64,000 nt of DNA from Nitrospirota bacterium (GTDB lineage Bacteria; Nitrospirota; UBA9217): assembly GCA_963751455.1 (NCBI GenBank), contig CAVVUN010000015.1:768001-832000 (forward strand), read 5' to 3'. The notes below the pieces were generated by a model that was given only the letters and a program-made list of their open reading frames with translations, had not been told where the DNA came from and did no database searches. Of the stretch, positions 14,404 to 35,701 are shown one piece after another. Position 1 is the stretch's first letter; every line of letters begins with the position of its first letter. The translations under genes and the position numbers were made by a program.

Positions 14404-14632
14404 CTATGTTGCGAATACGGCGTGAAGTCAATTGCAATCAGATGCGTGCTCGCCGCTAATTAAACCATGACCTCACACAATCAGGAGAGTCGTGCGCGAA
14501 TAGGAAGGCATAGTGGACCGGGTCCCGGAAGTTTGATGGTAAATGCCGTCGTTCGCCGCCGTCCTTACGTCAAGCATAACGAGGGCGAAAAGTATTTGCA
14601 TTGACAATTGGTGTAAATGCAATTTATCACCA

Positions 14633-14695
14633 TGTTTCACCTACTACTAAACAGGAGTTCGTAGAAGTGAACCTGTAACAATTACTGCGTGAAAC
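14633..14695. repeat. Direct repeat A flanking the RM-TA module
   Basis: 22 bp TGTTTCACCTACTACTAAACAG identical to 19104, with further similarity GTAGAA..TGAA.CTGTAACA. Confidence 0.75.
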
Positions 14696-14702
14696 CGCAT
14701 GC

Positions 14703-15731: not shown

Positions 15732-17925
15732 CGCTGTCCGCCCCATAAATTTCTGATTTTTCTTTTACAGCTACTGTCCTAACCATCGCTGCATTCATCA
15801 GTTCTTCGCTAAAATGCTTTTCAACAGCTTCTAATCCGCCGAACTCCACAATCATCGACGCAACTGCCGCAGTCTTATCCCGGAGCGGCTTCGACTTGTC
15901 CCATTGGTGCCGCAGATGCCATACAGCGAGCCTTATAAGATGCCCATAAATAATGCAACGCACATCTCCCCGTGTTTCCTTGAGACCAGCTTGACGCAGT
16001 TTTTCCACATCATCTCGAACCAGATCGGCAAGCGCTGCCGGTGTTTTCACCAGCCAGCGAGCAGGCACAGAGCCGGTAGATCGACAGACAAAAACCGTAT
16101 CAACAATAGACGAACCGGTGCCATTGATATGGATCGAGGCGCCCATCTCAGCCGGGCATGGCAAGGATGCGGAACAGACCAGGCCGGAATCGAGCATTGC
16201 CACGGCAATGGGATAATAGGCTTCAAGACTATTATGATGATAGGTAAACGCCAGGGGATGACCGGGTTTTAAAGCACGCGCCATTTTTTGGAATACAAGC
16301 GAGAGGCCTTCCGTAAAATGGTCGAGGCCCCGTTCCATATTGACGTTGCCTGTAAGTTCCTGTTTGTCCCGGGTCGTATCGCGTGCGAAAGCCGGGTCCC
16401 CTGCTCCCACGAGCCGCCGCAGCCAAACATAGCAGAAATCCATCAGTTCAGCATACTGCACATTTCCGTAATAGGGAGGGTCGGTAAACACCGCGTCCAC
16501 GCTGGCAGGCTTCAGGTCAGCTTCCATCGAGCTTTGACTGAGAATGCGGATTTCGCGTCTCGCCAATGGGACAGTCCCGTTTCTCTGGTCGCCGATCCAT
16601 TCATTCTGAATAGGAACCAGAATTTTGCGTCCCTCTACGTGCCGTATCTCAAAGGGCGCATCACAATAAGCTTTGGCCTTAAAGTATTTTTCAATGATGT
16701 TGGACCAACCGCCGCTCCCGACGCTCATGCCCCCGCCGTTCATGATTCCCAAAAAGTTCGACTCACACTGCACAAGCCCCACTGGAAAACCATGAACGGA
16801 AAAGATATCGAGCGATTTAAGCGCCATTGAGTCATACCGGCAGAGCATGTTCTGGTAACGAAGAAGATCTGAAAGATTGGTCGCGAGAGCATTACGAACA
16901 CGCTCATCCACGACGCCGGCAATGGCCCGGCAGCTCAGCTCCAGCCCGAGGAGCTGGCGCGAATTGAACATCTCACTATATTTTTTATAGCCCCATCGAT
17001 GGAGCCGCGCCGTCTCATCGCCCCCCAATATCGCGTCATCGGGCACAAACGTAGTCTCCATACTACTCAATCTGTTCGCGGCCTCGGCATATTTCGCCAG
17101 GTCGGTTCGCGAAGGCTTCTTAAAGAATCTTCCCTCGTGACCCGGTTTACATTTTTTACAGTGATACTCCATAGCATACATCCGATGAACCGGCGGATGT
17201 TCAGGCTTGAAAGAGTAGGAGTTATCCTTGCCGCAGTGTTTGCATGAATATTTGCTTCTTCGGGCGGGGCCTTCGATCACCAGGCGTTCGCCGCATGACT
17301 TGCACTTACCCGGCCGTTGCCGGTCTTTTGCTCCGCTCAATTCGCCGCAACACGAGCAAACATAGACGTTCTCCGGATGCCGTTTATCTTCCGCAAGCAG
17401 GTATCCGGGGAAAAGATCGTTTGCTTTCCCGCAGCCGGTGCAGGTATGTTGCTTTACCCAGAGGAAATATTTTACGTGAGCCGTCCTTGACCCGCACTCA
17501 AGGCAAGTCGTGCGGTACAAGCTTCCGATCTCCCGCTCCAATCCGCTGACAAGCTCATCCGCTGCTTTACGATAGGCTTTTAAATCAAGGTGCTCGATCT
17601 CCTGCCGTACAATCCAATAGGACATGGGGTTGATGTCGTAACCGATCACATCGCAACCAACGCGGTTTGCCTCAAGGATAGGCGTGCCTCCTCCCATGAA
17701 GGGATCAACTACAACAAGGCCCGATAGATTATTGGAAGAGTAAAAAGCATCCTGGAGCGGTTTGTCTACGAATTCCGAAAGGAGAAGCCCGCGGAAAAGG
17801 GTCCCCGGCCGCCGGGCGAACCATTTGTGAACGGCAATAATAGGCCGGTAATTTTGCTGAATTTGCTTTTCTCGCAGTGCCAGGGAGGAAATAAATGGGA
17901 CTTCGAATTTTTTTTCTATGGACAT
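15715..17925 (-). CDS. Amino (N6A/N4C) DNA methyltransferase, DUF1156-like, with multiple Zn ribbons
   Basis: HKWFARRP, DPFMGGG (motif I), FTDPPYY (motif IV), six CxxC pairs. Confidence 0.88.
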   Translation of the reverse strand: MSIEKKFEVPFISSLALREKQIQQNYRPIIAVHKWFARRPGTLFRGLLLSEFVDKPLQDAFYSSNNLSGLVVVDPFMGGGTPILEANRVGCDVIGYDINPMSYWIVRQEIEHLDLKAYRKAADELVSGLEREIGSLYRTTCLECGSRTAHVKYFLWVKQHTCTGCGKANDLFPGYLLAEDKRHPENVYVCSCCGELSGAKDRQRPGKCKSCGERLVIEGPARRSKYSCKHCGKDNSYSFKPEHPPVHRMYAMEYHCKKCKPGHEGRFFKKPSRTDLAKYAEAANRLSSMETTFVPDDAILGGDETARLHRWGYKKYSEMFNSRQLLGLELSCRAIAGVVDERVRNALATNLSDLLRYQNMLCRYDSMALKSLDIFSVHGFPVGLVQCESNFLGIMNGGGMSVGSGGWSNIIEKYFKAKAYCDAPFEIRHVEGRKILVPIQNEWIGDQRNGTVPLARREIRILSQSSMEADLKPASVDAVFTDPPYYGNVQYAELMDFCYVWLRRLVGAGDPAFARDTTRDKQELTGNVNMERGLDHFTEGLSLVFQKMARALKPGHPLAFTYHHNSLEAYYPIAVAMLDSGLVCSASLPCPAEMGASIHINGTGSSIVDTVFVCRSTGSVPARWLVKTPAALADLVRDDVEKLRQAGLKETRGDVRCIIYGHLIRLAVWHLRHQWDKSKPLRDKTAAVASMIVEFGGLEAVEKHFSEELMNAAMVRTVAVKEKSEIYGADSDEISF

Positions 17926-18061
17926 GGGATTTTTGGTAAGAAGAATAATGCTTCTCGATGAAAAGACAGTACAGCAATTTTGTTGAAAAAGCAAGGTGGG
18001 AGAGTATGGGGAGGACGTTTACAGAGCGAAGATATGGTTTCGAAACGTGGTGCAAGAATTT

Positions 18062-18513
18062 TTATGCAGCAATGAGATCCGCCAAAACGACTACTTTGAT
18101 TTCCTTAACCTGTCTGAGTTTTTTGTCATTGGTAACGAATGCATCAGCGCCGGCATGGACAGCCGCTGCGATTTGAATGGCATCAAGCGCCCTTAAATCC
18201 AGATAGTGCCCTCTCAACTTTCCGGCATCCTCGGCTATCGATGTTGTAATTTCAAGCATGTTGAAATTTATGCCATGTTCGAGGAACTCTGCGAATTTTC
18301 TTGCGAGCTTGTTGTCGCCTGCTTGTATTGGTTTCGGCAATACCTCAGTAAGGGTTATTACAAAGGAAAAGGCGGTTATGCGTCCTGAAAGGAATAAATC
18401 GAAAACTTCTTTTGTAAGGGGGCCGAACCGGGGATGGGCCTCGATGTAATAGATGATCGGCGCGGTATCAATGAAAAGGGTATTTAACCGGAAAACGTTT
18501 CGGCAATGGTCAT
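18062..18513 (-). CDS. vapC: PIN-domain toxin (VapC), frameshifted near the 5' end
   Basis: FIDTAPIIY, TLTEVL, ALDAIQIAAA, FVTNDKKL; ATG 18513 overlaps the antitoxin stop. Confidence 0.8.
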
Positions 18514-18734
18514 GCCCGATCTTCCCTCAAGCGGTTGACATACTCCTGCGCGTCCTCATTTACCCAAAGGCCTTGGCCCAGGCCGTAGAGCTGGCTTAAA
18601 TCGTGTTTTTTCATAAGTCCGGTTTTTCTCAGTTGATGCGCAAGCTTCTCAACCAGCTTAAGCTGGTCTTCAGGCGAAAGTTTTTCTATTTGTCTCTCAA
18701 GTTCTTCCAAGGTTCCCTTTGCCATTTTATTCAC
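18510..18734 (-). CDS. Putative antitoxin paired with the PIN toxin
   Basis: 74 aa, directly upstream of vapC; LYGLGQGLW...DAQEYVNRLRED tail. Confidence 0.75.
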   Translation of the reverse strand: MNKMAKGTLEELERQIEKLSPEDQLKLVEKLAHQLRKTGLMKKHDLSQLYGLGQGLWVNEDAQEYVNRLREDRA

Positions 18735-19103
18735 CTAAGAAAAGAATACTACAAACCTTTTGAAAAGGCAAGGAAAGTCTACCCCAATGTCAGGCAGAAA
18801 TATCGTATATTTATTGTACCCGACAGCCAAAGCCGCGCACACGGTATCAGGAGTCTATGTGAGTTTGGGTCAAGAGAAACCTTCGGACGGGAAGGGAGTT
18901 ACGGTTGACTTTTTCGGGCGAAGATTGAAATTTGATCTTTCGAGGCGCTGTTTATTTTACCTACAAGTCCGCACTTGGATTAACGTGAAGCAATTATCAA
19001 TTACCGGGTGAAACATGCACCGAAACTACTCACGGCTGCTTAATTCGCAAGTCCATTTCGGTCACTACGTCCCGGAGATTCGCTCTGGAAGGAAAGAGCT
19101 GTT

Positions 19104-19165
19104 TGTTTCACCTACTACTAAACAGATTTCTGTAGAATGAAACTGTAACAGTTGCCAAGTGGAAA
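19104..19165. repeat. Direct repeat B flanking the RM-TA module
   Basis: Matches 14633-14695. Confidence 0.75.
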
Positions 19166-19329
19166 TTGTTAATACGAAAAAAGGGGGAAGAGCTGGAATG
19201 TCAAACCGCAAGACCTGGCCCTAAAGATTCGTTCTATGCGTAATGGACGAGCCATACAGGGGAGTTAGCAGAAGTTTAAAGAAAAGTCCAACAGTATGGA
19301 CCTGACCCTAAGAGGTTCCCTGATTGAAA

Positions 19330-19386
19330 GTTGAGCGAACGGGTAACTCGCCGCAAGGCAAGTCGAGGTTGACCCGCTGGTTGGAT
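19330..19386 (-). other. Degenerate integron attC-like site after the AbiJ gene
   Basis: Minus strand ATCCAAC-CAGCG-GGTCAACC...AGTTACC; L''/L' arms pair with extra C bases; R' box degenerate. Confidence 0.45.
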
Positions 19387-19409
19387 CATTATGTTATGTA
19401 TTAATTTAC

Positions 19410-20390
19410 TTATTTTCTTTTGATTAAACTCTTGATCCACGACATGCTTGATTCTATAACCCATATCCGTTGCTGATCGAGAGATTGCGGCCGTGCACCG
19501 CTTCCGGCACCATGGCTTCGTGGATTTCTCAAGGACGAAAAAAGATGTCTTATCGCATCTGCTTCCCATATTTCAATATATCTGCCGTTTTTTGTGCTCA
19601 CCAAGTTATCGACGTAATTTGAAGTGCCTTTTTCTTGACCAGTAGTCCAACCATTTGCATCGGATATTATCTTAATTGCACTTTCCAATGCCTGAAGAGC
19701 GTACACGACAGCATCGTCTTTTCCAGCATCTCGCCTGTCAAGAGCTTCCTTCATTTCCTTATCTACATTTGCCCATTTCTTATCAGAAACAAGAGCCCAA
19801 AAGGGTTTTTCAATTTCCTTGTCAGTTAACTCGTCCTCAACAAGTTGAATATAGCCGTTATGATATGCTAGCGGCAAATTCGCTTCTCTAAACCTTTCAT
19901 TTAGCTCATTGACTGACAATGCAAAATCTTCTACTTTCCCTTTGGAATTCACCGGGTCTGCTTTCGCTTTTGAAAGCATTGAAGCTAAAATGCCTAGTTT
20001 GTTAGCAGCGTTTTCTTTTTTTAGATAGTCCTCGGCGCCTCGGAACAACAACTCAATAAGCCCGATTCTCTTTTTAAGAAAGTAGTCTGGATCACCATGG
20101 CTATTGTTCCATAAATCATAATTTTCAAATATAAGTCTCAGGCATATTTCTTCATACGTTTTTCCTTCACCAAGCCGTCCAATACCATATTCCCTCGATA
20201 GCCTGTCATGTGCGGCTTTATATAAGTCATCTTTGATTGAAATTGAAATGAACAAATCCTGATCAATAATTTGTCCAGCCTGGCTCAAACATCGCCGAAG
20301 AGTATACGGAAATTGATCTCCGTATAGGAGACGGTAGGGATATCTTTTATGGAATGCATCGGTAAGCATTTTAGTTTCCAATAACTCCAC
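19410..20390 (-). CDS. AbiJ-NTD4-like protein with C-terminal HEPN (abortive infection-type)
   Basis: MLTDAFHKRY start resembles AbiJ_NTD4; ELNERFREANLPLAYHNGYIQ; HEPN RxxxxH motif RNPRSH. Confidence 0.72.
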   Translation of the reverse strand: MELLETKMLTDAFHKRYPYRLLYGDQFPYTLRRCLSQAGQIIDQDLFISISIKDDLYKAAHDRLSREYGIGRLGEGKTYEEICLRLIFENYDLWNNSHGDPDYFLKKRIGLIELLFRGAEDYLKKENAANKLGILASMLSKAKADPVNSKGKVEDFALSVNELNERFREANLPLAYHNGYIQLVEDELTDKEIEKPFWALVSDKKWANVDKEMKEALDRRDAGKDDAVVYALQALESAIKIISDANGWTTGQEKGTSNYVDNLVSTKNGRYIEIWEADAIRHLFSSLRNPRSHGAGSGARPQSLDQQRIWVIESSMSWIKSLIKRK

Positions 20391-20721
20391 CGAGTGAAAC
20401 GTGGTGGGAGCGCTGATCTTTCGCTTTGCTATGCAATCTCATTTATCAATTTCAGGAGCGACTAGTTTACCTCCTGCATCGAAAGCATACCAAGTTCCTT
20501 CGACAGCAAAAAACGTCAGGCTCTCTCCTTGGTCTTTTAAAGTCCATTTATATTTGGACTCATCTATTTATCGCCGCGAAACTTGTCTTTCGAAATACGA
20601 TGTATTACCCGAAGAATGAACTACTTTATCTGCGCGCTTTACCATGTTGTCAATTGTTAGACGACCGTCTCGTTTCGAAGCACGTGTATATTCTGATTGA
20701 GTCTGTCGTATCTGGACGTTA

Positions 20722-20837
20722 TCGGGTAGAACGAAGTGAAACCCGACATTTTTCCATTATCCATGCTATTCATCGTCACTTCCAATATTCCAGCCTACAG
20801 ACGTCGGGTTTCACCAAAAACGTTCTACCCGACCTAC
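20722..20837. repeat. Inverted pair of GTAG-type REP-like palindromes (REPIN-like)
   Basis: TCGGGTAGAACG..GTGAAACCCGAC and its inverse GTCGGGTTTCAC...CGTTCTACCCGACCTAC. Confidence 0.6.
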
Positions 20838-20918
20838 CGGCTCTTTTTTCAAAGAGTAGGTAGCGCCTATATTAGGCTATCAATTGGCTAATTCGGCTCT
20901 ATCATTCATGTTTGTCCT

Positions 20919-22640
20919 TCAGAAGCGGAATCCAAATAGTCCACCATCATCTTTAGCATCGGTCAAGACGACAGGCAAGACATATTCGCGAAGATCAAAC
21001 CCGTCCGTCTTTTCCTTGAAGGCGTCGTCCTCGTTCATCGTCACAATGTATTGGAACCCTAGTTCACGGGCTGTCTCCGCCCCGACCTTCAATGCACTGA
21101 TGACTTGGCGGCCATCAACGCCATCAAAAAGATGACTGTCGTGGATCAGAAACCCCGGGCTGATTCGGCGCCTCGCGCATAAGCGCATGAGCATTAGGTC
21201 AAAGCAGAATATCTGCATATTCTTGATACCTTTGCTGCGGGAGCCTTGCATCGGGAACTGAAAAACGGGTCCGTTTGAGGTCTCCTCGATTGTCATACTA
21301 CCTGCCGACTCATAAAGACGCCTTGAGGTGGCCTCGAACGCAAGAATGGCTTCTGACAATCGCTGATTTTGTTCAGAGAAATCGCGGCGAAGTCTCAGCG
21401 TCAGCCGATTGCGCTCAATTTCCAATTCATTCTTTGTGCCTTCTAACTGCTCAGCTGCCTCAAAACGTTGCCGCAGGGACTCGACTTCAGACTCCAATCG
21501 CCCAGTCTCACCCTGCAGTTTGGCGAACTGATCCAGTGCGCCATGGCTCTGTAAAATCCCCATGATTTCTGAGCGACGTTGGTCAAGACGTTGCTTTTCT
21601 TGTTCGCGAGATGTGATACGTTGTCTGGCGGCCAGCAATTCTTCGGATAGATAGTCGTGTCGATTGCGAACCACAGACTCGTGAAAGCTTCGCACTTCAT
21701 CGTAGCGTTTGATGGCCACCCCTGGCAGCACTACCCCAGCTTCAGCATAAATAGCTTCCAATGCTATCAATGGCGGTGGAGCTTCAACTTGCATTGCCGA
21801 CTCCAAGTCACGAATCGATGCAGCATCGATAGTGTCATCGTTGGAAATCGAGTTAAGTTGCCGCGTAACCTGATTTGCTTCCCCTTCAAGTTCACGGTAT
21901 TGTGGCAGCACAAGGAAGGCGCCGATCTGACCCCTGAGTTCGTTCAAACGAGCCTCGGCGACGGTAAGTTGAGTGCGCAGGTCCGCCGCTTTCCCTATGA
22001 TGTTTCCGAAAGCTCCGATTCCTGCCGCTTGCTTCAGGACGGCCAAAGTTTTTTCGCGGTCGCGCACTTGTTGCCAATCGCTCGCAATCTTCCAGTCCAA
22101 GCCAAGAAGAAACAGCAAAGCCACTTGATAATCACCGGCTTGCTGCATAGTCGCCTGCTTCTCAGGCGTGGTGAAGGCACCACTGAGCTGACGACGAACA
22201 AAGTAGGCAAAGAGCGAGCGGAAGGACGGAGAGCGGCCGGTACCCTCTGGAATTGTCTTCAAGCCAAACATCTGTTCACCGAGAAGCGCCACCAACTCGG
22301 AGTTGGAAAGTTTGGTATTTCCTTTCAAAAAACTTTCTCCAGAAACATGAATTTTGGACTTAGCCTTCCCACAACGCTCAGCAGATATCATTTCTCCACC
22401 TAGGTCGAGCTCCATGCCAAACGTCTCATCGGCCAGGGCATCAATGCGGAAAAGTGATTCCTTTCCAGCTTCTGCTCCAGTGAGGAAATGAACGATTTCG
22501 ATCAGGCTACTTTTGCCCGCTCGGTTACGGGTCTGCTTTTCGCTCGCTCCTGCTTCCTTCTGTGCCAGCAATACGTTAAGGCCGGGCTTGAATTCAAGCG
22601 TCTTGAAGGTTGACAGGCTGCTATATATGCGATGAATCAT
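20919..22640 (-). CDS. lmuB: Lamassu/ABC-three-component SMC-like ATPase (DUF2326)
   Basis: Walker A RNRAGKSS; long coiled coil; SKG signature; Walker B FLIHDSHLFDGVD. Confidence 0.85.
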   Translation of the reverse strand: MIHRIYSSLSTFKTLEFKPGLNVLLAQKEAGASEKQTRNRAGKSSLIEIVHFLTGAEAGKESLFRIDALADETFGMELDLGGEMISAERCGKAKSKIHVSGESFLKGNTKLSNSELVALLGEQMFGLKTIPEGTGRSPSFRSLFAYFVRRQLSGAFTTPEKQATMQQAGDYQVALLFLLGLDWKIASDWQQVRDREKTLAVLKQAAGIGAFGNIIGKAADLRTQLTVAEARLNELRGQIGAFLVLPQYRELEGEANQVTRQLNSISNDDTIDAASIRDLESAMQVEAPPPLIALEAIYAEAGVVLPGVAIKRYDEVRSFHESVVRNRHDYLSEELLAARQRITSREQEKQRLDQRRSEIMGILQSHGALDQFAKLQGETGRLESEVESLRQRFEAAEQLEGTKNELEIERNRLTLRLRRDFSEQNQRLSEAILAFEATSRRLYESAGSMTIEETSNGPVFQFPMQGSRSKGIKNMQIFCFDLMLMRLCARRRISPGFLIHDSHLFDGVDGRQVISALKVGAETARELGFQYIVTMNEDDAFKEKTDGFDLREYVLPVVLTDAKDDGGLFGFRF

Positions 22641-22876
22641 GATCTTTTCCGGGTCAGAAGCCCATCCTCCATTTTAATAACATCGATAAGGTAAAGAAGA
22701 TCCAGAGCGAGCACAAACACGTCATAGCTCATAAAAAAGTGCGGTGAATTTCCAACTCTAGTCAATTCCTCCCAGAGTGCGGAAACCGTCTTGGGTTGGT
22801 GTAATTGCCGCAAAATCCGCCCACCTACTGTGAGCAGTGCCCGCTCCTGGGACAGGTGCTTGGAAGGTAGAATCAT
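22637..22876 (-). CDS. lmuC: ABC-3C middle component (MC6-like)
   Basis: MILPSKH...ALL.VG..IL...FVLALDLLY pattern; ATGA overlaps on both sides. Confidence 0.8.
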   Translation of the reverse strand: MILPSKHLSQERALLTVGGRILRQLHQPKTVSALWEELTRVGNSPHFFMSYDVFVLALDLLYLIDVIKMEDGLLTRKRS

Positions 22877-23775
22877 GGCGCTACCTGCCGCGGTTCCTCG
22901 AAAATATCACAACGCTCAAAGTAATAGGCCATAACGGTCAGAACTGCCATCTCATGCTCGGGAAGGCCTCGTTCTACCCCACCCGCCCACGCTTGGAGTT
23001 CAGCAAAAATTAAGTTGGGGGTAAGATCGTGACGTAGTGACTCATATTTGGTCCGAAACGACTTAGCAATGCGTTCACCCAACATGGTATCATGCCACTG
23101 CTCAAAGAATCGGGCAACCAAAGGCGCCTTGATCATACCTTCTCTCAGCAATGTCGCCACACTGTCTGATAAGGAATTCGCCTCGATTTTGCCGCGCGGC
23201 ACATCTTTCACCGGTTGACCGGGTGCTACCGCTTGATCGGATAAATGTTCAAGAACCACCTGCAAGTCCTTGAACCCGAGTCTGGCTTTGGTTTCTGCCG
23301 TTGGCGCGGGGCCAAACCAAACCACTAAATCATCCGAGGATAGACGGCGGAAAACAAGACGAAACTCCTCCAGACACCAAGGTGCCAGTGTGATACCAGG
23401 ATTCGCCTGCTCGAAATCTAACAATAATGTCTGAACATGGGGCGGCAGACCATCTACCGCATTATGGGCGAAGACCCATTTGTCGAAATGGCTTCTCCAA
23501 TGCACCTTGGCCCCCTCGAAATCCTCCTGAATTTTCAAGACGGCTTTTGCCTCAGTCATTTCGTTCGGAGCATAAACCTGAAAAAGCCGACGTTCGGATT
23601 TGAGAAAGCCATCATTTTTGCGATCTCCTCGGTTGCCCCAAGGACGGCAGGCCATGAAGTCGGCCTTGTAGGCAAAGCCCATCAGTTTCTCAAAGAAATC
23701 CTGAAAGGCGTCTCCCTTCGCCCGAATGAATCCGTTCTCGAACTTCTGCTCGTAGTAGGCTTGCTGAAGGTTCAT
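22873..23775 (-). CDS. lmuA: Lamassu effector: nuclease-like N-terminus plus ABC-3C CTD
   Basis: FQDFF..LM, GDRKNDG, FQVYAP nuclease-like motifs; C-terminal KIEAN.L...YYFERCDIFE. Confidence 0.78.
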   Translation of the reverse strand: MNLQQAYYEQKFENGFIRAKGDAFQDFFEKLMGFAYKADFMACRPWGNRGDRKNDGFLKSERRLFQVYAPNEMTEAKAVLKIQEDFEGAKVHWRSHFDKWVFAHNAVDGLPPHVQTLLLDFEQANPGITLAPWCLEEFRLVFRRLSSDDLVVWFGPAPTAETKARLGFKDLQVVLEHLSDQAVAPGQPVKDVPRGKIEANSLSDSVATLLREGMIKAPLVARFFEQWHDTMLGERIAKSFRTKYESLRHDLTPNLIFAELQAWAGGVERGLPEHEMAVLTVMAYYFERCDIFEEPRQVAP

Positions 23776-23790
23776 GATTGAGATACCCTT

Positions 23791-23916
23791 TCACCTGACA
23801 GGCTTTGACTCCGCACCCCTGCCAAAGTGGTGAATCTTTTTCTCGAAGCGCTCAAACAGCTGACTGTTGGCGACTATGAGGAACTGCTCTACTTTGATCT
23901 CGGCGACGATTTGACC
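23791..23916 (-). pseudogene. Remnant C-terminus of a type I/IIG RM methylase-specificity fusion
   Basis: Translates as QIVAEIKVEQFLIVANSQLFERFEKKI, resembling the HsdS-like terminal helix; no start codon. Confidence 0.45.
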
Positions 23917-24217
23917 AAATCCGACGTTGTTTCTATTCTATTTGTGCTTTTTTAAACTAAGGAAATAAAATGCTGGGAGGTTTCAGCGAAATGGAAAAAG
24001 TCTTCAATGGTGTTTCTCCCTGCGGCTATCAAGGCTGTGCCCCTGATCCTTCCTGAGGATACTGGATTTTGGAGCTAGGGGCAAGGGAAATTGTAAAGCC
24101 GACGTGAGACGATGAGGTGACCAGACACGACGGAGAGGCGGCCCTAATCTAAATCAGATGCATCAATTACGGGATGCAATCTGAAGCAGCGACTATGAAC
24201 GCCATCTTGCAGATTTC

Positions 24218-24584
24218 AGGAAGCCCTTTGTGCGCATGCCCTGCTCTATAGACCCCGGTGGTGTCCTGTCAGCTTGCCATGGCGCCTGCAGGACTGCTGC
24301 CTTCCGCTGGGTCGATTGCGTCGGCTTTCCCTCCGATGTTCCGAAGGTTATCCTGATGACCACGACTATACATATTTCGGGGCTCAATAACACGGCCTGC
24401 AAACTTGTTCCGCCCGGCTCCGTACCTTCTCTCACGGGAACGCACGCAGGCTTCGCTACCGACCTGCCTGCTCAGCTTTGATCGGATGGGACTTGAGTCG
24501 TTTCGACTCTCACCCACTGGATAACAACGACAGATTTCATAGAATAATTCTATTCCCTCCGCCTCGGATTTACCTTGGCGCGAC
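24218..24584 (-). mobile_element. Group II intron 5' fragment (domain I) without an RT ORF
   Basis: Minus strand GTCGCGCCAAGG...CCAGTGGGTGAGAGTC...GCAGGTCGGTAGCGAAGC...GGAAAGCCGACG...GCGGAAGGCAGCAGTCC...CACCGGGGTC..GAGCAGGGCATG, recognised as domain-I-like; no DV/DVI or RT seen. Confidence 0.6.
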
Positions 24585-24618
24585 GATCCGCTTGTTAGCC
24601 GGGCCTGCTCCGATAGGG

Positions 24619-25401
24619 CTACACCATCTCGCGGAAAACCTTCACAATCCTGGGATTCGCTACGTCGTCGTTGACCCGGACATGATACGAGTGGCCGTCC
24701 TTTAGCAGGTGTTCAGAGTAAATGAGATCAACGTTGCCGAAGTACGGACTGGCTTTGGAGAGAACCTCGTACTTCAGCTTCCAGAGCTTCTGGATTCGCA
24801 GTAATTCGCAGGTGAAGACCCGTATGGAGATCCGCTGTCCAGTCAGAATGACGCTACCGAGCGCGACTGAAGCTTTCGTTTTCTTGCGCCGTACACTCAC
24901 ATAGCTGAGTGCTGGGTTGACTGCGGACTTCGCCGAGTGCTTCGCGAGCTTGTCTACGGCCTTGTTGTGTGGGTCTTTCGCGTGGCCTTTCACCCATCGA
25001 AACTCAACCCGGCGCCCCGAGCTCTTGATTGCCTTGACGAGCTCCTTCCAGAGTTCCGCATTAAGCACTGGCGCTCCGGTTCGCCTGAGCCACCTGCTCT
25101 TTGGCCATTCGAACATCGCCTTCTGGTAGTTGTCACAGACGTACATCGAATCGCTGTGCACCACTATTTTGTGTAGTCCGTGAGCGAGTCCGCGACGTCT
25201 CGCCTCGTTAAGAGCGACAATGCACGCCTTGAGCTCCATCTGGTTGTTTGTTGCACATTTGTAACCGGGAGGGGACCAGTCCTCCGCTTGCTCGCACCCT
25301 AACTCATCAACGAGGACGAAACGCATGCCGATTCCGCCCCGTCGTGGAGAGCTGAATGACGAACCATCGGTGTAGATGTTGAGCGCCTTCTCGTCGAGCA
25401 C
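24619..25401 (-). CDS. Ribonuclease HI domain plus ~100-aa uncharacterised C-terminal domain
   Basis: YTDGS, TNNQMEL, SDSMYV, WVKGH..DPHNKAVDKLA: catalytic residues intact; extension after NPALS. Confidence 0.85.
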   Translation of the reverse strand: MLDEKALNIYTDGSSFSSPRRGGIGMRFVLVDELGCEQAEDWSPPGYKCATNNQMELKACIVALNEARRRGLAHGLHKIVVHSDSMYVCDNYQKAMFEWPKSRWLRRTGAPVLNAELWKELVKAIKSSGRRVEFRWVKGHAKDPHNKAVDKLAKHSAKSAVNPALSYVSVRRKKTKASVALGSVILTGQRISIRVFTCELLRIQKLWKLKYEVLSKASPYFGNVDLIYSEHLLKDGHSYHVRVNDDVANPRIVKVFREMV

Positions 25402-25437
25402 GCGAACCCTCCGCTCCCCCGACCAGAGCCCCCTGCT

Positions 25438-25500
25438 CCGGCCAAAGTAATTATCTAAACGAAAACGACCCAGTAATATGCAAAATCCGTTGTTAGCGGG
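25438..25500 (-). other. Putative attI-like site / cassette boundary
   Basis: TTGGCCGG at the cassette start is near-complementary to CCGGCTAAC after the stop; preceded by GCTAACAACGG...CGTTTAGATAATTA. Confidence 0.35.
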
Positions 25501-25549
25501 TTTTGCAAGACAAAGACCAGGAAAAATAAAAATGAGCTTATTTGCAAAG

Positions 25550-25578
25550 ACTATATGCCTGATTCAGGGTGCTGTCAA
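25550..25578 (-). promoter_or_regulatory. Near-consensus sigma70 promoter facing the defence array
   Basis: Minus strand TTGACA-17 nt-TATAGT. Confidence 0.7.
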
Positions 25579-25704
25579 CAGCGAGGGAGGGGTAATATTC
25601 GGGGGTATGCGTTAATAAATTCTGAATAAAGTGTGGACTGTTTCTAAAAATGGAAACTCCAATGCTACAGGAAGGAACTTCGCTTGTCACTGATTACAAC
25701 ATTT

Positions 25705-26328
25705 TTACCGGGTGCTGGTTCCAAAGGCGCGCTTCCATCGTTTCCGGGGATCATCAAAGTGAACTTCATTCGGGGAAAAACGTTCAGGCTCGACATCAGC
25801 TCCCGCCCATTGCAGAAAGTCTTCGTGCGATTTATGTCCTGGGTCCATGATCGCCTCAAGGAACTGCTGATATCCATATATGCCGGCGCAGTTCTCCGGC
25901 GGACAAGCCCTCTCACCGGCAATGCAGCGGGGATACTTCTTCTCCTTGTCTCTTGGCACTATCTTTTCAAACTTCACTGCGTGCTCCCAATTGTCGCCGT
26001 AATCATAAACATATGTCGCTGTGCTGTTCTTCGTTGAAAAATAGTCCGAGATGTTGTGATCCCAGCCCGGCAGGATGTCCAGATCGAACTCAGCGTCATC
26101 GTCCGGTATGCCTATTCGTTCTTTTGTTTGCGCTTGCGGGTTGTGAACGGCAAAATCATGCAAATGACAATCCTGCCAGCCCATTGCATCCTGCACGGCG
26201 ACATGCAAATCCCAAAAAGTATACGTTTCCGGGACCTGGATCGTGCGCCACACCGGCGGGTTGATCCCCTTTAAGGTGATTTTAAAATGATATACTCGTT
26301 CGGATTTCTTTTTCATGGGACGAAACAT
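25705..26328 (-). CDS. Plasmid pRiA4b ORF-3 family protein
   Basis: PPVWRTIQVP, LHVAVQDAMGWQDCHLH, YVYDYGDNWEH, GERACPPENC. Confidence 0.9.
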   Translation of the reverse strand: MFRPMKKKSERVYHFKITLKGINPPVWRTIQVPETYTFWDLHVAVQDAMGWQDCHLHDFAVHNPQAQTKERIGIPDDDAEFDLDILPGWDHNISDYFSTKNSTATYVYDYGDNWEHAVKFEKIVPRDKEKKYPRCIAGERACPPENCAGIYGYQQFLEAIMDPGHKSHEDFLQWAGADVEPERFSPNEVHFDDPRKRWKRAFGTSTR

Positions 26329-26375
26329 CTTGCGGGTTTTTGGTTCACTGCGTGCTTATTTTTCTCCGGCTTGCT

Positions 26376-27023
26376 TCACAATTTCTCAATCTGTTCTTCA
26401 GTCAGCCCTGAAAGTTTAGCAATGATCTTAATGTCGACGCCTTCCTGCTTCATGCCCTTTGCCATCTCAATTGCCTTTATCTTCTCGCCTTCCTTCCGCC
26501 CAATCTCGACGCCGATTTTCAGACCTCTCTGTTCTCCCAGCTTCTTCAGCCGCTCCTCTTCCTGTTTGAACTTGAGCACGTACTTCTTGCTTCTGCTCAG
26601 CTTCAGCAGGAGCCCCGAGTCCACAAAGCTGTAGTAGCTGGTCTCGCTGATGATAATATGGTCGATCACCGGGACGTCCAGGAACAGGCCGACCTGGTAC
26701 ATGCGGTCCGTGATGTCCTCGTCTTCCTTCGAAGGCTGAAGTTCGCCGCTGGGGTGGTTGTGGACCATGATCACCTTGACGGCCCGTTTCTGGAGGGCGA
26801 AGCTGAATATCTCCGTGGGATCGACAATGCTTTTTTTCCCGTTCCCCAGGCTGATCAGCTCTATGAGCAGGATCCTGTTGCTGTTTGACAGGCAGACGAC
26901 CCAGAAGTGCTCCTTGCTCCGGCCGATCTTGTTTTCGCGCAGCAGGACCTGCTGCATGATCAGGGATATATCGCGTGAGTTGAGCACCTGGATCTTTTGT
27001 TCACTGGTCAGTTTTACTCTCAT
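26376..27023 (-). CDS. RadC-like JAB domain protein with Rpn-type C-terminal tail
   Basis: EHFWV, HNHPSG...PSKED, VIDHIII; tail GLKIG..EG.K.KAIEMAK.M..G....IIAKLSGLTEEQIEKL. Confidence 0.85.
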   Translation of the reverse strand: MRVKLTSEQKIQVLNSRDISLIMQQVLLRENKIGRSKEHFWVVCLSNSNRILLIELISLGNGKKSIVDPTEIFSFALQKRAVKVIMVHNHPSGELQPSKEDEDITDRMYQVGLFLDVPVIDHIIISETSYYSFVDSGLLLKLSRSKKYVLKFKQEEERLKKLGEQRGLKIGVEIGRKEGEKIKAIEMAKGMKQEGVDIKIIAKLSGLTEEQIEKL

Positions 27024-27385
27024 GACGGCCCCTGTCTTGCACCCAGCGGTTATGAGCGCTACGCCGCGAATGCAGGGTGTTCCTTGTATTGGACTGGAAT
27101 ATGGAATGAAATGCTGAAAAACCGTTTCAATCGTTTACTTCTGCGTATTCTGTGGACAAACTTCGTCGCTGAAGTAACGATTATACCCAAAACCTGGACG
27201 CCAGGATCAACACTAATCATGAATGTGCTTTCTCTAACGGGGTAAAGCGAGAATAGCACAGAAAGGGCTTTGTTTCAATTGCGAATTGGTGAAAAGAGAT
27301 GTGTTTTTTGATTACGGAGATTCAGAAGTGCTGAATAGTAAACTCAGTTCTATGAAATAAAAAAGGAAAAGCGGATAGTTATCCG

Positions 27386-27826
27386 TTACAGTCCGAGAAA
27401 AGGATTTCTGACGGTGAGCCCGTTTTCTATGACCTGACCGTGCTGCAGATCCTCAGTATAGAGAATATCGCAGCCTGCTTCTATCGCGGAAGCTACAATG
27501 AGGCCGTCCCAGTAAGGGAACTTTAATTGAGAAGATATATCCAAGGCTTTTGTGATAGTCCCATCATTTATCAGCGTCACAGGATACAACTCGAATAAAT
27601 TTTTTACGATTTGCCGGAGAGAATCTATCTCGACGTTGAATTTTTTATTCATGACCCATATGAACTCATTGATAACCTGCGTGCTCAAGCAAACCGGCTC
27701 ATCTTCAAGCAGCGACAGCACAATGGTTTTCTTTTTGGTTTCCGTAACGGAATATGCATAAATCAGGACATTGGTATCGAGGAATATTTTAAATCTCCTC
27801 TCAACCATATGTATCGTCTCAGCCAT
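27386..27826 (-). CDS. vapC: PIN-domain toxin
   Basis: IFLDTNVLIY, STQVINE, WDGLIVASA, LYTEDLQHG. Confidence 0.9.
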   Translation of the reverse strand: MAETIHMVERRFKIFLDTNVLIYAYSVTETKKKTIVLSLLEDEPVCLSTQVINEFIWVMNKKFNVEIDSLRQIVKNLFELYPVTLINDGTITKALDISSQLKFPYWDGLIVASAIEAGCDILYTEDLQHGQVIENGLTVRNPFLGL

Positions 27827-28010
27827 ATATCTCTACCCTGTTGAATTTCCATTTTGACGTGTCTATCTTGACCGTGTCGATCATCAATTTTCTCCGGATG
27901 TCGCTCTCGATCTTGACCACTACTTCGACCATTTTATCCTTGAATTCATCTGGGAGATTCATATGCAAAACGCCGTTCTTGACTTTTACTTTTTCTTTAA
28001 CCACCGTCAT
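27819..28010 (-). CDS. Putative antitoxin
   Basis: RBS AAGGAGG; 63 aa ending WKFNRVEIYG; overlaps the PIN gene start. Confidence 0.75.
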   Translation of the reverse strand: MTVVKEKVKVKNGVLHMNLPDEFKDKMVEVVVKIESDIRRKLMIDTVKIDTSKWKFNRVEIYG

Positions 28011-28256
28011 TTCCGCCTCCTTAAAACCATGAAGCATGAATGCAACTACACTGCTTAAACTGATAATAACATAAAATCGGGACGAAAGGGAAGGCCTCTT
28101 TCTATCTGTCATCAGACGCTCTGTTTATTTTGCCGCCTCTGCCTCTTTTGAGCCTGCCTTCCGCCAGGGCTTTCTTCAGTTCGCAATGAGCACCGGCGGG
28201 ATGTTGTTGCACCCGCTGTGTTGATCTACTCAGGCCAGAGCCGTAAGATTCACCAA

Positions 28257-28714
28257 TCACAATTTCTCAACCTGCTCCTTCGAGAGCTTTGTATACCGCA
28301 TAATCCTAAAAACGGCATTTGAACACGGATGAACACGGAAACAGCGGATCAAAACAATGTGATAGAGCAAAAAGCCATCTCGCCTTTTGGGTGAATCCAT
28401 TACTGTTCGTAACTTCCTATAAATCCGTGTTGATCAGATTTTATCCGTGTCCAACTGCTTTTTTCAGGATAATTTCTTCAATGGAGCGCGAAACTGAATA
28501 TTTCCGTGGGATCGACGACGGTCTTCTTCCCGTTCCCCAGGCTGATCAGCTCTATGAGCAGTATCCTGTTGCTGTTGGACAGGCAGACGACCCAGAAGTG
28601 CTCCTTGCCGCGGCCGATCTTGTTTTCGCGCAGCAGTATCTGCTGCATGATCAGGGCTATATCGCGTGAATTGAGCACCTGGATCTTTTGTTCGCCGGTC
28701 AGTTTTACTCTCAT
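28257..28714 (-). pseudogene. Second RadC/JAB-Rpn-tail copy with internal deletion and MITE insertion
   Basis: First ~77 aa nearly identical to 26376-27023; removing the MITE restores tail IEEIMRYTKLSKEQVEKL*. Confidence 0.8.
28305..28468 (+). mobile_element. MITE family 1, copy 1 (164 bp)
   Basis: Imperfect TIRs CCT...AGG; 5-bp TSD ATAAT; same sequence as 58080 and 63537 in reverse orientation. Confidence 0.85.
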
Positions 28715-29039
28715 GAGGACCTCTGTAACAGCTGTTAATTTTTGAATCGGGCAAACGCTACAGATTTAGTCAGTTACGAATAAAATTCTTGTCAAAAAGG
28801 GAAGAAAAAATTTGCCGCAGGGCTCACAGAGTTCACCGAGGGCAGCCAAAAAATGTATGTGCTTTAAAGCTTTTCTCTTCGTTCTCGGTGGTCTCTGTGG
28901 CGAAAGCTTTTCCGGTCTATCCGGGTTACGAAAAAATTGGAAGAAGTTGAGCATCATCGTCCTTCCGCGCTTTATTCAAACATCATAACCTTCATTAAGT
29001 CGCAGGTGCCTGCTCAGTCAACATTGTTCATTCGCAAAA

Positions 29040-29498
29040 GCATTTTGCGGGAAATAATTGACAAAATCAAAGGCGAATACAACCTGGGATAGGAACTTAG
29101 AGGACCTCGTCTACGTAAATACAGACGGAAAATGATTGTTTCCAGGGCGTCCCCACAAGTCGATTCTGGTTTTTTTGATTGGAAAAGACTGATGCCTCGC
29201 TTGTTCGAGTGGTCATCCTGGACGCAGGTCCCCTCATTCATCTCGATGCTTACCGAAGCCCTGCGGTTCCTTGAAACCCACAAACCGGAGCTGATGGCGA
29301 AGTTCATCCGCGAAGACGTGGAGTGGGGCCTGTATGGACAAAGACAGCGGCGGGAATGATTCGATCCTGAAAGTCAGCGAGCAGAGTCAGGCCTCCGAGT
29401 TCAATGACGTCCTTTTCGTTGGTAAACCACCCTTCGTCGATCAGGGCCTTAATTTGATCGTATAGTTTTTCCGGTAGTTCGGCTTGAACTGTTTTCAC
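29040..29498 (-). pseudogene. Scrambled RHH-antitoxin / toxin module
   Basis: N-half MKTVQAELPEKL...KDVI on minus; C-half TEALR.FLETHKPELMAKFIREDVEWGL on plus at 29252-29345. Confidence 0.55.
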
Positions 29499-29973
29499 GG
29501 TTCCTGGTTGCTCCTTTCTTTAAACGTATTATAGCATGACGCGGCAACTACAACAAGGTCGGTCCTTTCCGGAGAAACTTCGCTCGAAATGACAAGTCTG
29601 ACTGTTTTTCGAATCGGCTTATCTGCGTTAATCTGCGTAATCTGCGGACAAACTTCGCCGCTGAAGTAACAAAGCGAGAATAGCACAGAAAGGCCATTGT
29701 TTCAATTGCGAATTGAGGAATGGGGTAAATCAGTTCGGAGTTTTTGAGCCTTGCGCCCGCGCTTACGAGCCTGCACCCAGCGATAATGAGTGCTACGCCG
29801 CGAATGCAGGGTGTGGAACCGCGAGTGCAGGGTGTTCGGGGTTCGGAGTGATGAATGGCGTTATCTGATAATCGGCTATATCAATTACAGGTTGTAATCC
29901 CATACCAATCAAGATACTACTTTGACTCAAAGTACAGGAAGAAACCTGTTTTTACCCTTCCTTTTCCCCTTTG

Positions 29974-30300
29974 CTACATCGTTTCAAGCAGCTTGTAATA
30001 CTCCGTTATCTTTCGGATGGATTCCAGAGTTGCCTGGAACAATATCCAACTTAGCGCAAGGATCGCAATTGTGAGTCCGATCTTCCAACTGCGCTTCGTA
30101 TCAGGACGCCACCAGATCAGCGGCAACGCCAGAGGTCCCACACTACAGACAGCGACGACAATAAAAGATTTTCGGAAATACCATTTGATAGAGTTTTTTT
30201 TATGGGGTGGGCGGGAGGACGGACTGAGAAACTCACCGCAGTGTTTACACTTAATTGCCGCGTCTTGAATCTCTTCAGCACAATAAGGACACTTCTTCAT
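29974..30300 (-). CDS. Zinc-ribbon membrane protein
   Basis: CPYCAEEIQDAAIKCKHCGE followed by two TM segments. Confidence 0.8.
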   Translation of the reverse strand: MKKCPYCAEEIQDAAIKCKHCGEFLSPSSRPPHKKNSIKWYFRKSFIVVAVCSVGPLALPLIWWRPDTKRSWKIGLTIAILALSWILFQATLESIRKITEYYKLLETM

Positions 30301-30303
30301 AAT

Positions 30304-30757
30304 TCATTTCATTTGGTAGAACTCAGGATGACTGCGGGAGTCTGCAAGGTCGCTTGCTTCAAGCATGACGTCCGGAGCTCCCGGCGGAGCCGTTTCGTGC
30401 GTATCGCCGTGAGCCATACACCCCGGTAATTCGGGCACTTCCGCGATGAAGATTTTATCTTCTTCGCTCCGGTAAAGGATGATTTCATACTTATCCATGG
30501 GCTTCACCTCGCAGATTGTACCTCAGAATCGCCGAACGGACTTGACGAACTTGATACGTCTTTGCCTTGCTGCCTTCCTTTTGAAGGTTGATCCTTTCCT
30601 CCACACCCGGCTTCCTGAAGATATGATGACTTCCGCGCACGCGCGTTTCAAATCCGAGCCTGATTAAGCACAATTCGTCAAAAGCGACGTTTGCATCGGA
30701 ACTTCCGAGCAGTATTTGCTCAGCAGCTGTATTTGCCCATTTGATATCAACCGGCAC
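30304..30757 (-). pseudogene. Degenerate HicA-HicB toxin-antitoxin pair
   Basis: HicA-like LGF...RGSHHIF..PG with disrupted start; HicB-like FIAEVPELPGCMAHGDT with aberrant C-terminus. Confidence 0.7.
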
Positions 30758-30896
30758 TCGATGGCTTTAAATTATCATATTTCGTCTATCTGTTCAAGCA
30801 GTTAATGTGACAAGCATCTCCGGTGCCCGCTTGCGCATTGTACCGTTGGTTCGAACCACAAATTCTGTTTTTTTACGACTACATCGAAAAAATTAC

Positions 30897-30924
30897 GGAA
30901 CAAAATCCGAATAAATCCGTTTAA
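30897..30924 (+). promoter_or_regulatory. ECF sigma promoter (copy 3)
   Basis: GGAAC-N16-CGTTTAA upstream of tolC. Confidence 0.75.
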
Positions 30925-31005
30925 CAGATATAAGAGGAAAACAACGTGCTTTGAGGGCGGCAAATTTGCTCCCGCCCGTACTCGATGAAAGGATAAATAA
31001 AGTTC

Positions 31006-32374
31006 ATGCCGCGGTTGAAAACGTTCAGTCTCGCTGTTGTTTTGCTCCTGACCTTTCAGGCTATTTACGCTTTTTCCGCCGAAATACAGCAAGAACGGCT
31101 TCCCGAAGAGAAGATTCAAGACCATAACCCTGCTTCTGAAAAGCCGAAGACAGATATAAAGACCTTGACGCTCGATCAATGCATCGAACTGACCCTTGAG
31201 AATAATCCCGGGCTCCAGATTGAGCGGGAAAAGATAGTCGAGCTTGAGAACGATTATCGTATCGCGTCATCCGGTCTCTACCCGAGATTGACCGCGAGCG
31301 CCTATTATACGAAGCTGGACCAGGACCGTATCGGAGTGCTTCCCGGGATGGCATACTCCGAGGAAACGCTGGGGCAGCTCAAGCTGAAACAGCTTCTGTT
31401 CGACGGCGGGAGGATTGGTTACAACAGCCGTGCCGCAGCAAAGGCAGCGGAAGCCCAGCGCGAATCCGCTGAAGCCGCGCGCCTCGATACCGTCTATGCG
31501 GTAAGCCAGGCATATTACCGTCTCCTCGAGGCGCGTGAACTTCTGCGCGTCGGGGAAAACTCGCGGTCTCAGCGTGAGGCATTCTTGAAACTGACCGATA
31601 GCTACCATAAGGCGGGAAAGGCCACGCGCCTCGAAACGCTCAGGGCAGAGGCCCAGCTCCTGGATGCTGAAAGGACCCTTATCCAGGCGGGGGAAGCGAT
31701 GCGGATCAGCGAATTGATACTCAAAAAGACCATGGGCATCGGTGTACAGGCATTGATTGACATCGCGGACGGGCTGCCGGACGCGTTCGCCGAGCCGGGT
31801 CAGGAAGAAATACTGTTTACGCAGGTCCTTGAAAACAATCCGGACTTGAAAAGGAGCGCTCAGTTTAAAGAGCAGGCCAGGCTGTCGATAGATTCCGCGG
31901 CAGGGTCTTATTTGCCGGAACTCAGCCTGCAGGCGTCGTACGGGTACCGCGATCGCGGCGCCGGCAGTGCCGGGGAAGAATGGACAGCGGGCGTGTTTCT
32001 CGAGTGGTCCCTGTTCGAGGGAGGACTCACGCGCGGCGCAGGTTGGAAAGGCGCGGGCCCGATACCGGCAGACCGAGTGGAACGAACGCGCGGTGCGGGA
32101 CCAGGTACAGGTGGATTTTAGACAGGCGCTTGGCGACCTGCGCACGGCCCTCGCATCAATCCGGTCTTCGAAACGGCTGGTCGAGGCGCAGGATGAAGCC
32201 TACACGGCTGCAGTGGAATTTTATAAAAGGGGCAAATCCACATACATCGAGGTGTTGACTGCGGAGACCGAGCTGACCCGGGCAAGGGCTGGTTATGTGC
32301 GCTCGGTCGGGGATTACCAGTCTGCGTCGGCACGGCTTGATCGGGTGATGGGGAAAAAGGCAACAAGTCAGTAG
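31006..32374 (+). CDS. TolC-family outer membrane efflux protein, frameshifted near 32040
   Basis: Signal peptide; LTLDQCIELTLENNP; two OEP repeats (YPRL, LFDGG; LPEL, LFEGG). Confidence 0.88.
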
Positions 32375-32592
32375 GAAAGGCCGTCCGCAGATTTCGCAGA
32401 TGGACGCAGATTTGAAGCCTCTGGCTTAATTCTCGTCAAGGGACGGCAGGGAACCATTCTATTCTTAGTTTGTTTCGCAGTGGGCCGCAATGTTGAAAAA
32501 CCGTATTCATTTTTGATTTAATCTGTGAAATCTGCGTCATCTGCGGATAATGCTGGTTTGAGTAGTTAATAACAAAAGCAGGGAGGCTAAAC

Positions 32593-33670
32593 GTGACAAA
32601 AATGAAGAAGATCAGCATAGCCATTTCTTCGGCGACGGTCGTGCTCGTAATTATAGCGTTCGTTGCTTATTCAAGAGCAAGCATTAATAAATCGGAAAGC
32701 GCATTTACGACGGCCGTCGTCGAAAAGCGGGACATGGGTTCCCTCGTCCAGGCAACCGGCATCATCAAACCCAAGGTCGGCGCCGAGGTAAAAGTCGGAG
32801 CGCGGATGACCGGCAAGGTGGAGCATCTTTACGCCAATATCGGCGACAGGGTCAAAAAAGGCCAGGTGCTGGTGCGGCTCGAGCAGGACGATCTGAAGGC
32901 CCGGGCGGACCAGGCTGAGGCAGCCTATCTGGAGGCAGCTGCCGCCTTCGACAAGGCGAAGATCGACCTGGAGCGGGACAAACCGCTTGCGGAGGAGGGG
33001 TATATTTCCCAGCAGAATATCGACGTGCTCCAAAACGTGCATGACATGGCGAAAGCAAGGGTATTGAAGGCCAAGGCCGAGCAGGATTACGCAAAAGCCC
33101 AGCTGTCGTATGCAACGATAACAGCGCCGATCAGCGGAACGATCGCGTCCGTTACGACCCAGCAGGGAGAGACCGTGGCCGCCGGGCTGAACGCGCCCAC
33201 ATTTATCACGATCATAGACCTGAACAAGCTCGAAGTGAACGCCTATGTCGACGAGACCGACGTGGGAAAGATCAGCGTGGCGCAGGAAGCGCTCTTCACG
33301 GTGGATACCTTCGCGGACAGGGATTTTAAGGGCAAGGTGACCGCCATCTATCCGCGGGCCGTGCTGCAGGAGAACGTGGTCAATTATATTACGCTGATCA
33401 GCATCGAAAACCCGGAAGGAAAGCTCAAGCCGGACATGACCGCGAACGTCACGATCACGCTCAAAAAGAAAAAGGGAGTGCTTGCGGTGCCATCAGCAGC
33501 AGTCAAACGAGAGGGCGGGAAGAAATACGTATTCCTTGCCGGCACAGGACGGCGCCACAACGCGGCGCGAAGTCAAAACCGGATGGAAGGAAGGCAACTA
33601 TCTCGAGATCACTTCCGGGCTGAAGGAAGGGGACATTGTGGCGATGAGCGAGGGGGGCGGGAAAAAATAA
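32593..33670 (+). CDS. MacA-like periplasmic adaptor, frameshifted near 33535
   Basis: ATG.IKP, GDRVKKGQVL, ITAPISG, KPDMTANV, EITSGLKEGD. Confidence 0.88.
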
Positions 33671-33795
33671 GAGTCAAAAAACATTTTGGACGCAGATAAC
33701 ATCGGAATAAGCGGATTAAGGTTCAGATAGAAGAAATTAATCTGCGATCAATCCGCGTAAATCCGCGTCCTAAAAATCTTTACAGAGGAGGAACA

Positions 33796-34478
33796 ATGAT
33801 CGAGTTGAAGGACATTACCAAGACGTACCGAAAGAACGGCGGCATGGAAGTGAAGGTTCTGCAGGGCGTTTCACTCAAGATCGAGAAGGGCGAGTACGTG
33901 GCCATCATGGCGCCGTCGGGCATGGGAAAGAGCACGCTCATGAACATCATCGGCTGCCTGGACCGGCCGAGTACGGGCGAGTATCGTCTCGACGGCATAG
34001 AAGTGGACAAAATGGACGACGACAACCTTTCTTCGGTCCGGAACAAGAAGATCGGGTTCGTATTCCAGTCAGTTTCATCTGCTGCCGAGGACAACAGCGC
34101 TCGAGAACGTCCAGCTCCCGCTGATCTACAGCACGCGACGAATCGGACATGAACGCGCTCGCCGTCGACGGCACTCAAGGAAGTGGGGCTCGGCGACCGG
34201 ATGAACCATGTGCCGAGCGAGCTTTCCGGCGGACAGCAGCAGCGCGTGGCCATTGCGCGCTCCCTCGTGAACGACCCCAGCATTCTGCTTGCCGACGAAC
34301 CGACCGGAAACCTGGATACGGCAGCCAGCACCGAGGTCATGTCGATATTCGACAAGCTCCATAAAGAGGGCAGGACCATCGTCATGGTCACGCATTCCGA
34401 CGAGATCGCCCGGCGGGCAAGCCGGATCATCAGGATGCGCGACGGCAGGATCGTGAGCGACGAAAGGAGGGCCGCATA

Positions 34479-34479
<1 letters not shown>
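33796..34479 (+). CDS. ABC transporter ATP-binding protein (MacB/LolD type), frameshifted
   Basis: [33 protein letters not shown] spread over more than one frame. Confidence 0.88.

Positions 34480-35701
<1,222 letters not shown>

Follow-up and report, generated by a model that had tools for sequence, protein, structure and literature searches.

According to the accessible portions of the papers cited here, Escherichia coli RNase HI reaches replication forks and R-loops via the tail of SSB, the protein that binds single-stranded DNA, held in a pocket that needs residue K60 (PMC12724664), and SSB and RPA stimulate RNase HI and RNase H1 (PMC11358518). R-loops have roles in the replication of T4 and ColE1 (PMC5333043), and the RNase H modules of RNase LS-type proteins have been proposed to hit viral priming intermediates (PMC3710099). 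The gene described here lies in a 64,000-nucleotide stretch from a Nitrospirota bacterium (assembly GCA_963751455.1, contig CAVVUN010000015.1, positions 768,001 to 832,000; hereafter the window, whose numbering is used throughout) and encodes an RNase HI catalytic domain and a predicted OB fold in a single chain, designated RNase HI-OB (24619..25401, minus strand). By fold and active site the product is an RNase HI lying outside the RnhA equivalog and the PADLOC-DB 2.0 models, and the gene is a credible candidate defence gene. Sequence, genomic context and structural modelling together tip the balance, by no great amount, towards a single-gene defence nuclease that removes the R-loops or primers of invaders.

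The open reading frame is intact, comprises 260 codons from a GTG start, and has a Shine-Dalgarno-like GGAGG, read from the sequence, 6 nucleotides before it (25408..25412, minus strand). Pfam RNase_H (PF00075) matches residues 5-157 (24931..25389, minus strand) with an E-value of 5e-30 and 104.9 bits against a cut-off of 25.8, and the acidic residues D12, E56, D84 and D150 together with H140 align to the active site of E. coli RNase HI, where the role of each residue is well established. A structure search with the window protein likewise matched RNase H structures. Judging by these conserved residues, the protein would cleave the RNA strand of RNA:DNA hybrids. In the public annotation of the source contig the gene starts at M27, giving a 235-residue product without the catalytic D12 (affected stretch 25321-25401, minus strand); the GTG start is taken to be right because three proteins in other database records, which cluster with the window protein at 90%, are likewise 260 residues long. 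The frame is unbroken though many genes in the window look frameshifted. The efflux/ABC operon (31006-37024, plus strand) and a second RadC gene (28478-28714, minus strand) are split into pieces, suggesting insertion-deletion errors in the assembly. A first-pass annotation made from the letters of the window had proposed a 260-residue protein with a full RNase HI catalytic set and a basic, OB-like C-terminal extension of approximately 100 residues, and all of these features are borne out by the data given here and below.

The nuclease is followed by a basic linker with a conserved VRRK motif (residues 160-182; 24856..24924, minus strand) and a predicted five-stranded OB-fold domain (residues 183-260; 24622..24855, minus strand). 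The tail carries a net charge of +9 in the window protein and a median of +8 across the family, matches no Pfam or PHROGs family, and is predicted to form a five-stranded beta-barrel that superimposes on known OB domains and packs rigidly against the nuclease (pTM 0.90). When folded alone without an alignment the tail gave an unusable model (pLDDT 48.6). A tail profile had no significant match in PDB sequences, PHROGs or Pfam, a Foldseek search of the PDB and of viral models returned only RNase H structures among the matches listed, and the ESM Atlas gave no usable match for the tail, with one homolog leading to 'ribonuclease H family' clusters only. Conservation is about equal in tail and nuclease (mean column scores of 6.4 and 6.5), and in the 93 full-length representatives the linker retains R171 in 77, Arg or Lys at position 172 in 89 and K173 in 78. 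The acidic tail residues E212 and D225 are invariant. The basic charge and conserved aromatic residues are suggestive of binding to single-stranded nucleic acid. Two observations on domain arrangement were rejected as functional clues or left without weight: a search for the tail as a stand-alone protein gave two hits among four candidates, both apparently truncated family members, with the search by tail alone confined to the shorter forms, and the extra C-terminal fusions seen among representatives (GNAT, DUF6308, HNH) were one-offs.

In the mechanism proposed here, RNase HI-OB would strip RNA from the R-loops or primers by which phages or plasmids start replication. The DNA strand, or else the single strand that is displaced, would presumably be bound by the VRRK-containing basic linker together with the face of the OB domain. 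The help that E. coli RNase HI and eukaryotic RNase H1 receive in trans from SSB and RPA would here come from within the same chain. Hybrids on invader DNA under a coat of phage SSB, to which the host RNase HI is not drawn, would then come within reach of the fused enzyme. The one pocket position compared, that of E. coli K60, is variable in the family and is occupied by Arg in the window protein. More ambitiously, the protein may be an RNase HI that bypasses host SSB by means of its own SSB-like OB domain and represents a new family of single-gene immunity, one that halts phage or plasmid replication through loss of origin R-loops and RNA primers, a defence by de-priming in which neither DNA is cut nor the cell killed; this is advanced tentatively, as a possibility that has somewhat less than even prospects. 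An abortive infection mechanism, in which the OB tail restrains the nuclease or senses a phage protein such as phage SSB and releases toxic cleavage of host hybrids or RNA, is improbable: the single-gene sensor-effector layout in defence islands, the rigid packing of the domains and the invariant E212 and D225, which could form a protein or intramolecular contact, would all suit it, whereas RNase HI chemistry on hybrids is normally not lethal, no antitoxin or partner gene is present, and a basic tail suits nucleic-acid binding better.

The defence nuclease proposed here belongs to a family that is distinct from housekeeping RNase HI. Of 2158 candidates in a homolog search 1768 were hits, and all but two of the best 120 (118) span no less than 97% of the query and are at least 57% identical to it. 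The tail is present in 137 of the best 150 representatives at 50% identity, and of the full-length representatives 87 span the four acidic positions, with the complete set retained in 78. Carriers occupy 25 of 80 loci, assigned by record title to Planctomycetes, Actinomycetota, Chloroflexi, Bacteroidota, Ignavibacteria, Myxococcota, Spirochaetes, Betaproteobacteria and Desulfobacteraceae, and 52 of 80 metagenome loci. A phylogeny built on the RNase H domain has a branch (100/95) that separates 26 family sequences, chosen by hand, from 21 ordinary RNase HI sequences. The first-pass annotation had taken the gene to be an accessory one rather than rnhA, pointing to the lack of housekeeping neighbours, which are indeed absent at the locus, and had suggested looking for a separate housekeeping enzyme. 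Two further RNase_H matches were found in the genome, a 161-residue classic RnhA (contig C11) and a 136-residue short type (contig C15), so the window gene is not its only RNase HI. Against the NCBIfam RnhA equivalog NF001236, which has a cut-off of 160 bits, the genome's own RnhA scores 201.7 and the window protein only 106.6. RNase HI-type hits occurred in 15 of 60 related genomes and the full-length fusion gene in none, and the tail profile matched none of 400 other genomes of the phylum. The family was not found in viral contigs (tail in 0 of 80 kept loci), plasmids or phages, a result bounded by the limits of these searches and no proof of absence. The fusion gene is thus an accessory, horizontally mobile gene of a separate clade, and not rnhA.

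Both mobility and defence are reflected in the surroundings of family members. Half-sites of attC scoring at least 12 bits were detected in 15 of the 77 family loci (14 of 72 with near-copies collapsed) but in none of 83 ordinary RNase HI loci (p 8e-6); the matrix was derived from family loci with each locus scored without its own sites, one hit (locus L026) appears spurious, and the threshold narrowly excludes several clear sites. Defence-type Pfam domains, by our own classification at E <=1e-12, lie within 3.5 kb of the gene in 13 of 25 genome loci (205 neighbours scanned), compared with one of 24 hand-picked control loci, or three on a loose reading (p 3e-4 and 5e-3; 150 of 164 neighbours scanned, one locus dropped). 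They include restriction-modification types I and III, AbiEii/RloB, OLD, KAP, ApeA-HEPN, TIR, Schlafen, GmrSD, PRTase-CE and NOV_C. In the shorter metagenome loci the count was 14 of 52 (149 of 164 neighbours scanned, plus 99 chosen proteins compared with PADLOC). The first-pass annotation had suggested scoring defence-island or integron association, and homologs show both; a lack of defence association, named there among the findings that would count against the proposal, is not seen. Clustering of 585 neighbours revealed no fixed partner gene, and searches of PADLOC-DB 2.0 (the 2023 library) with the window protein, its tail and six homologs returned no family at an E-value of 0.01. A ubiquitin-like cluster of ThiF, Prok-E2_C and Metal_CEHH (L225:599-3284) and a DAM-like-GNAT fusion (L224:8859-10226) also adjoin family members.

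Some of these data weigh against a defence role: 12 of the 25 genome loci have no defence-type domain, and the control in the comparison is a core gene. A rival role is accessory genome maintenance, in which a portable RNase HI independent of host SSB would rid the host, or the mobile DNA on which it travels, of R-loops or Okazaki primers, and would accumulate in defence islands only as insertion hotspots. High conservation across phyla, several copies in housekeeping context, the lack of a second RNase_H match in 5 of 25 other fusion-carrying genomes and the many copies near tRNA genes, which are typical insertion sites, are consistent with such a role. However, the other 20 of the 25 hosts do have a further RNase_H match, the gene is very rare within the phylum, and restriction-modification, OLD, ApeA, TIR and Ppl genes directly adjoin copies in unrelated phyla; maintenance is accordingly considered unlikely, although a serious alternative to defence.

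The gene in the window appears to have arrived as an integron cassette, as the first-pass annotation had suggested from its near-complementary ends. A core-site-like motif marks the likely 5' end (25438..25445, minus strand; 7 of 8 bases complementary to the 3' end), and the motifs at 25438-25445 and 24594-24602 are present as described. Their complementarity in the window, 7 of 9, is not beyond chance by itself, and the measure was rejected as a cassette test, since at least 8 of 9 is reached by 13 of 69 family loci and also by 6 of 82 controls. The cassette origin is supported because an attC half-site and a fitting intron target site are present. The attC 5' half (R'' box, spacer and start of L''; 24585..24600, minus strand) begins 18 bases after the stop codon and scores 12.4 bits with a matrix whose training set was 12 complete attC sites of the family, a score of which approximately 0.002 are expected per 170 nucleotides of genome. 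Complete attC sites lie 3' of family members elsewhere (e.g. loci L184, L190, L191 and L224), and that in L224 starts with the same 13 nucleotides as the window half-site.

Within its L'' box the half-site is interrupted by a 361-nucleotide 5' fragment (domain I) of a group II intron in cassette orientation (24224..24584, minus strand, boundary +/-1 nucleotide; Rfam RF02005, 102 bits), which runs from 24584 and stops at 24224; it has no reverse transcriptase gene and no 3' end, and the attC 3' half was not found. The fragment is 84-86% identical to two introns on contig C1 that bear a reverse transcriptase, and attC-like 5' halves precede both of these and a third fragment. The intron lineage inserts, in cassette orientation, at the L'' box of attC-like sites, a pattern common to its four copies or fragments in the genome (window 24224-24600, minus strand; C1:25647-26010; C1:503816-504180; C15:1395169-1395231). 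A contig from sequencing run X5 has the same kind of intron 5' flank, and coverage in four DNA sequencing runs was mostly of the intron piece; no RNA run was among those listed as carrying the sequence. Short repeated elements at 24140-24223 (minus strand) and 24055-24112 have copies elsewhere in the genome; the former begins exactly at the intron cut-off, and its first 7 nucleotides equal the 7-nucleotide start motif of the promoter element described below. A role for the gene in checking retroelements, or in assisting them, via the RNA:cDNA intermediates of group II introns, retrons or diversity-generating retroelements would match its substrate and a genome that holds reverse transcriptase-bearing introns targeting attC-like sites. 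It is nonetheless highly improbable, as no reverse transcriptase-like gene was detected in the 77 family loci by tblastn with the genome's intron enzyme or by a YxDD motif scan, where a distant enzyme could escape the one query and many loci are short, and an intron did insert directly behind the RNase HI-OB gene.

Defence remains the favoured role for a cassette that, in this genome, is likely immobile because its attC lost the second half when the intron inserted and was truncated. The locus has the single reading frame, the R'' box and the start of the L'' box of a cassette, lacks the L' and R' boxes of a complete foldable attC, and has no adjacent intI and attI as in a complete integron. 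No complete attC lies upstream of the gene, the upstream flank does not contain the attI-like motif of the genome's integrons, and assignment of that flank as attC or attI found no support; a strict attC hairpin scan of 14000-31500 detected nothing. No integrase is encoded in the window, and three IntI-like genes lie on other contigs (C1:554479, C2:447629, C3:356889). Two of these are open frames of 446 and 580 residues and one is split; the attI-like motif is common to their upstream regions, with different genes after it in each case, and the one on C1 has an attC approximately 7 kb away.

Upstream of the gene a sigma70-type promoter matching 11 of 12 positions (25550..25578, minus strand), from which expression would occur in this genome, lies within a dispersed element (25539..25676, minus strand), parts of which match in 21 of 63 same-family genomes. 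The element, approximately 135 bp, is multi-copy in these genomes and precedes unrelated genes at nine inspected loci; it is a generic dispersed element, and a Pc promoter belonging to an array is not supported. Between promoter and gene a 12-bp hairpin (25479..25507; z -4.55, with none of 200 shuffles folding as well) is a candidate operator or attenuator. Downstream, beyond approximately 820 nucleotides in which the intron remnant and a terminator-like hairpin lie, comes an intact three-gene Lamassu-like ABC-three-component system (20919..23775, minus strand; CTD10 effector, MC6 and DUF2326 ATPase in Pfam; PDC-M68, as PDC-M68A/B, in PADLOC, with a weak LmuB match). An AbiJ_NTD4 gene with a decayed 5' half of an attC behind it (19330..20390, minus strand) is a second stranded cassette in the island, although this remnant folds no better than shuffles. 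A 759-residue DUF1156-type methyltransferase and a 347-residue protein with a weak EcoRII-C match (14703-17994, minus strand) are likely a restriction-modification pair, and the island also holds PIN toxins and RadC. The first-pass annotation had placed the gene at the head of a defence array, under a strong promoter. The promoter match and the island stand, but an intact array is not supported: the attC half, the truncated intron, the lack of an integrase in the window and the dispersed promoter element indicate a stranded cassette in a defence island rather than an intact array with its own Pc, and any functional link or co-transcription with the neighbours is hypothetical.

If the proposed role is correct, the RNA:DNA hybrids of replicating invaders join the targets of bacterial immunity, and a classic housekeeping enzyme has been retargeted by one small domain. 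A test of defence would be cheap because the gene is small and stand-alone, with clear catalytic and domain-deletion controls, and an RNase H that needs no SSB and brings its own single-strand binder could serve as an R-loop probe. Literature searches aimed at the fusion, or at RNase H in defence or cassettes, turned up no paper on the fusion as judged from listings, with subscription papers and bioRxiv supplements outside view. The accessible main texts of defence-screen preprints, integron papers and the UG/Abi paper contained no passage with RNase H terms, the accessible part of the Tn7 cargo paper had such a term only in a mention of a transposase, and the words RNase and ribonuclease are absent from the accessible main text on BRiCs, the phage-defence integron cassettes (bioRxiv 10.1101/2024.07.02.601719).

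Among described systems, bacterial RNase HI (E. coli RnhA; PF00075; NF001236) shares the RNase H fold and the D-E-D-D acidic site, whereas the family described here has a 100-residue OB tail, forms a separate clade, is mobile and sporadic, and has a longer and more acidic beta2-beta3 hairpin (median 15 residues and charge -4, compared with 11 and -1). SSB-RNase HI and RPA-RNase H1, in the accessible portions of PMC11358518 and PMC12724664, likewise couple an OB-fold single-stranded DNA-binding module to an R-loop-removing RNase H, but as separate housekeeping proteins rather than, as predicted here, one chain on a mobile cassette. RNase H proteins with a hybrid-binding (caulimovirus viroplasmin) domain, including the RNase LS-type RNase H-HEPN proteins, also have an accessory substrate-binding domain in the sections available (PMC3710099); that of the present family is C-terminal and OB-like, with no HEPN or viroplasmin match and no antitoxin gene. 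BRiCs and CALINs, in the same bioRxiv text, are likewise single-gene cassettes bounded by attC with homologs also outside integrons, whilst the window copy, a candidate defence gene, has half an attC and no integrase nearby. Truncated group II introns (IIB/class E and CL1) occur in cassette arrays, one in cassette orientation, according to the accessible part of PMC7923331; the window insertion differs in lying inside attC, at the L'' box, with its target pattern seen in three related sequences of the same genome, and the locus illustrates the way in which an attC-targeting group II intron can immobilize a cassette.
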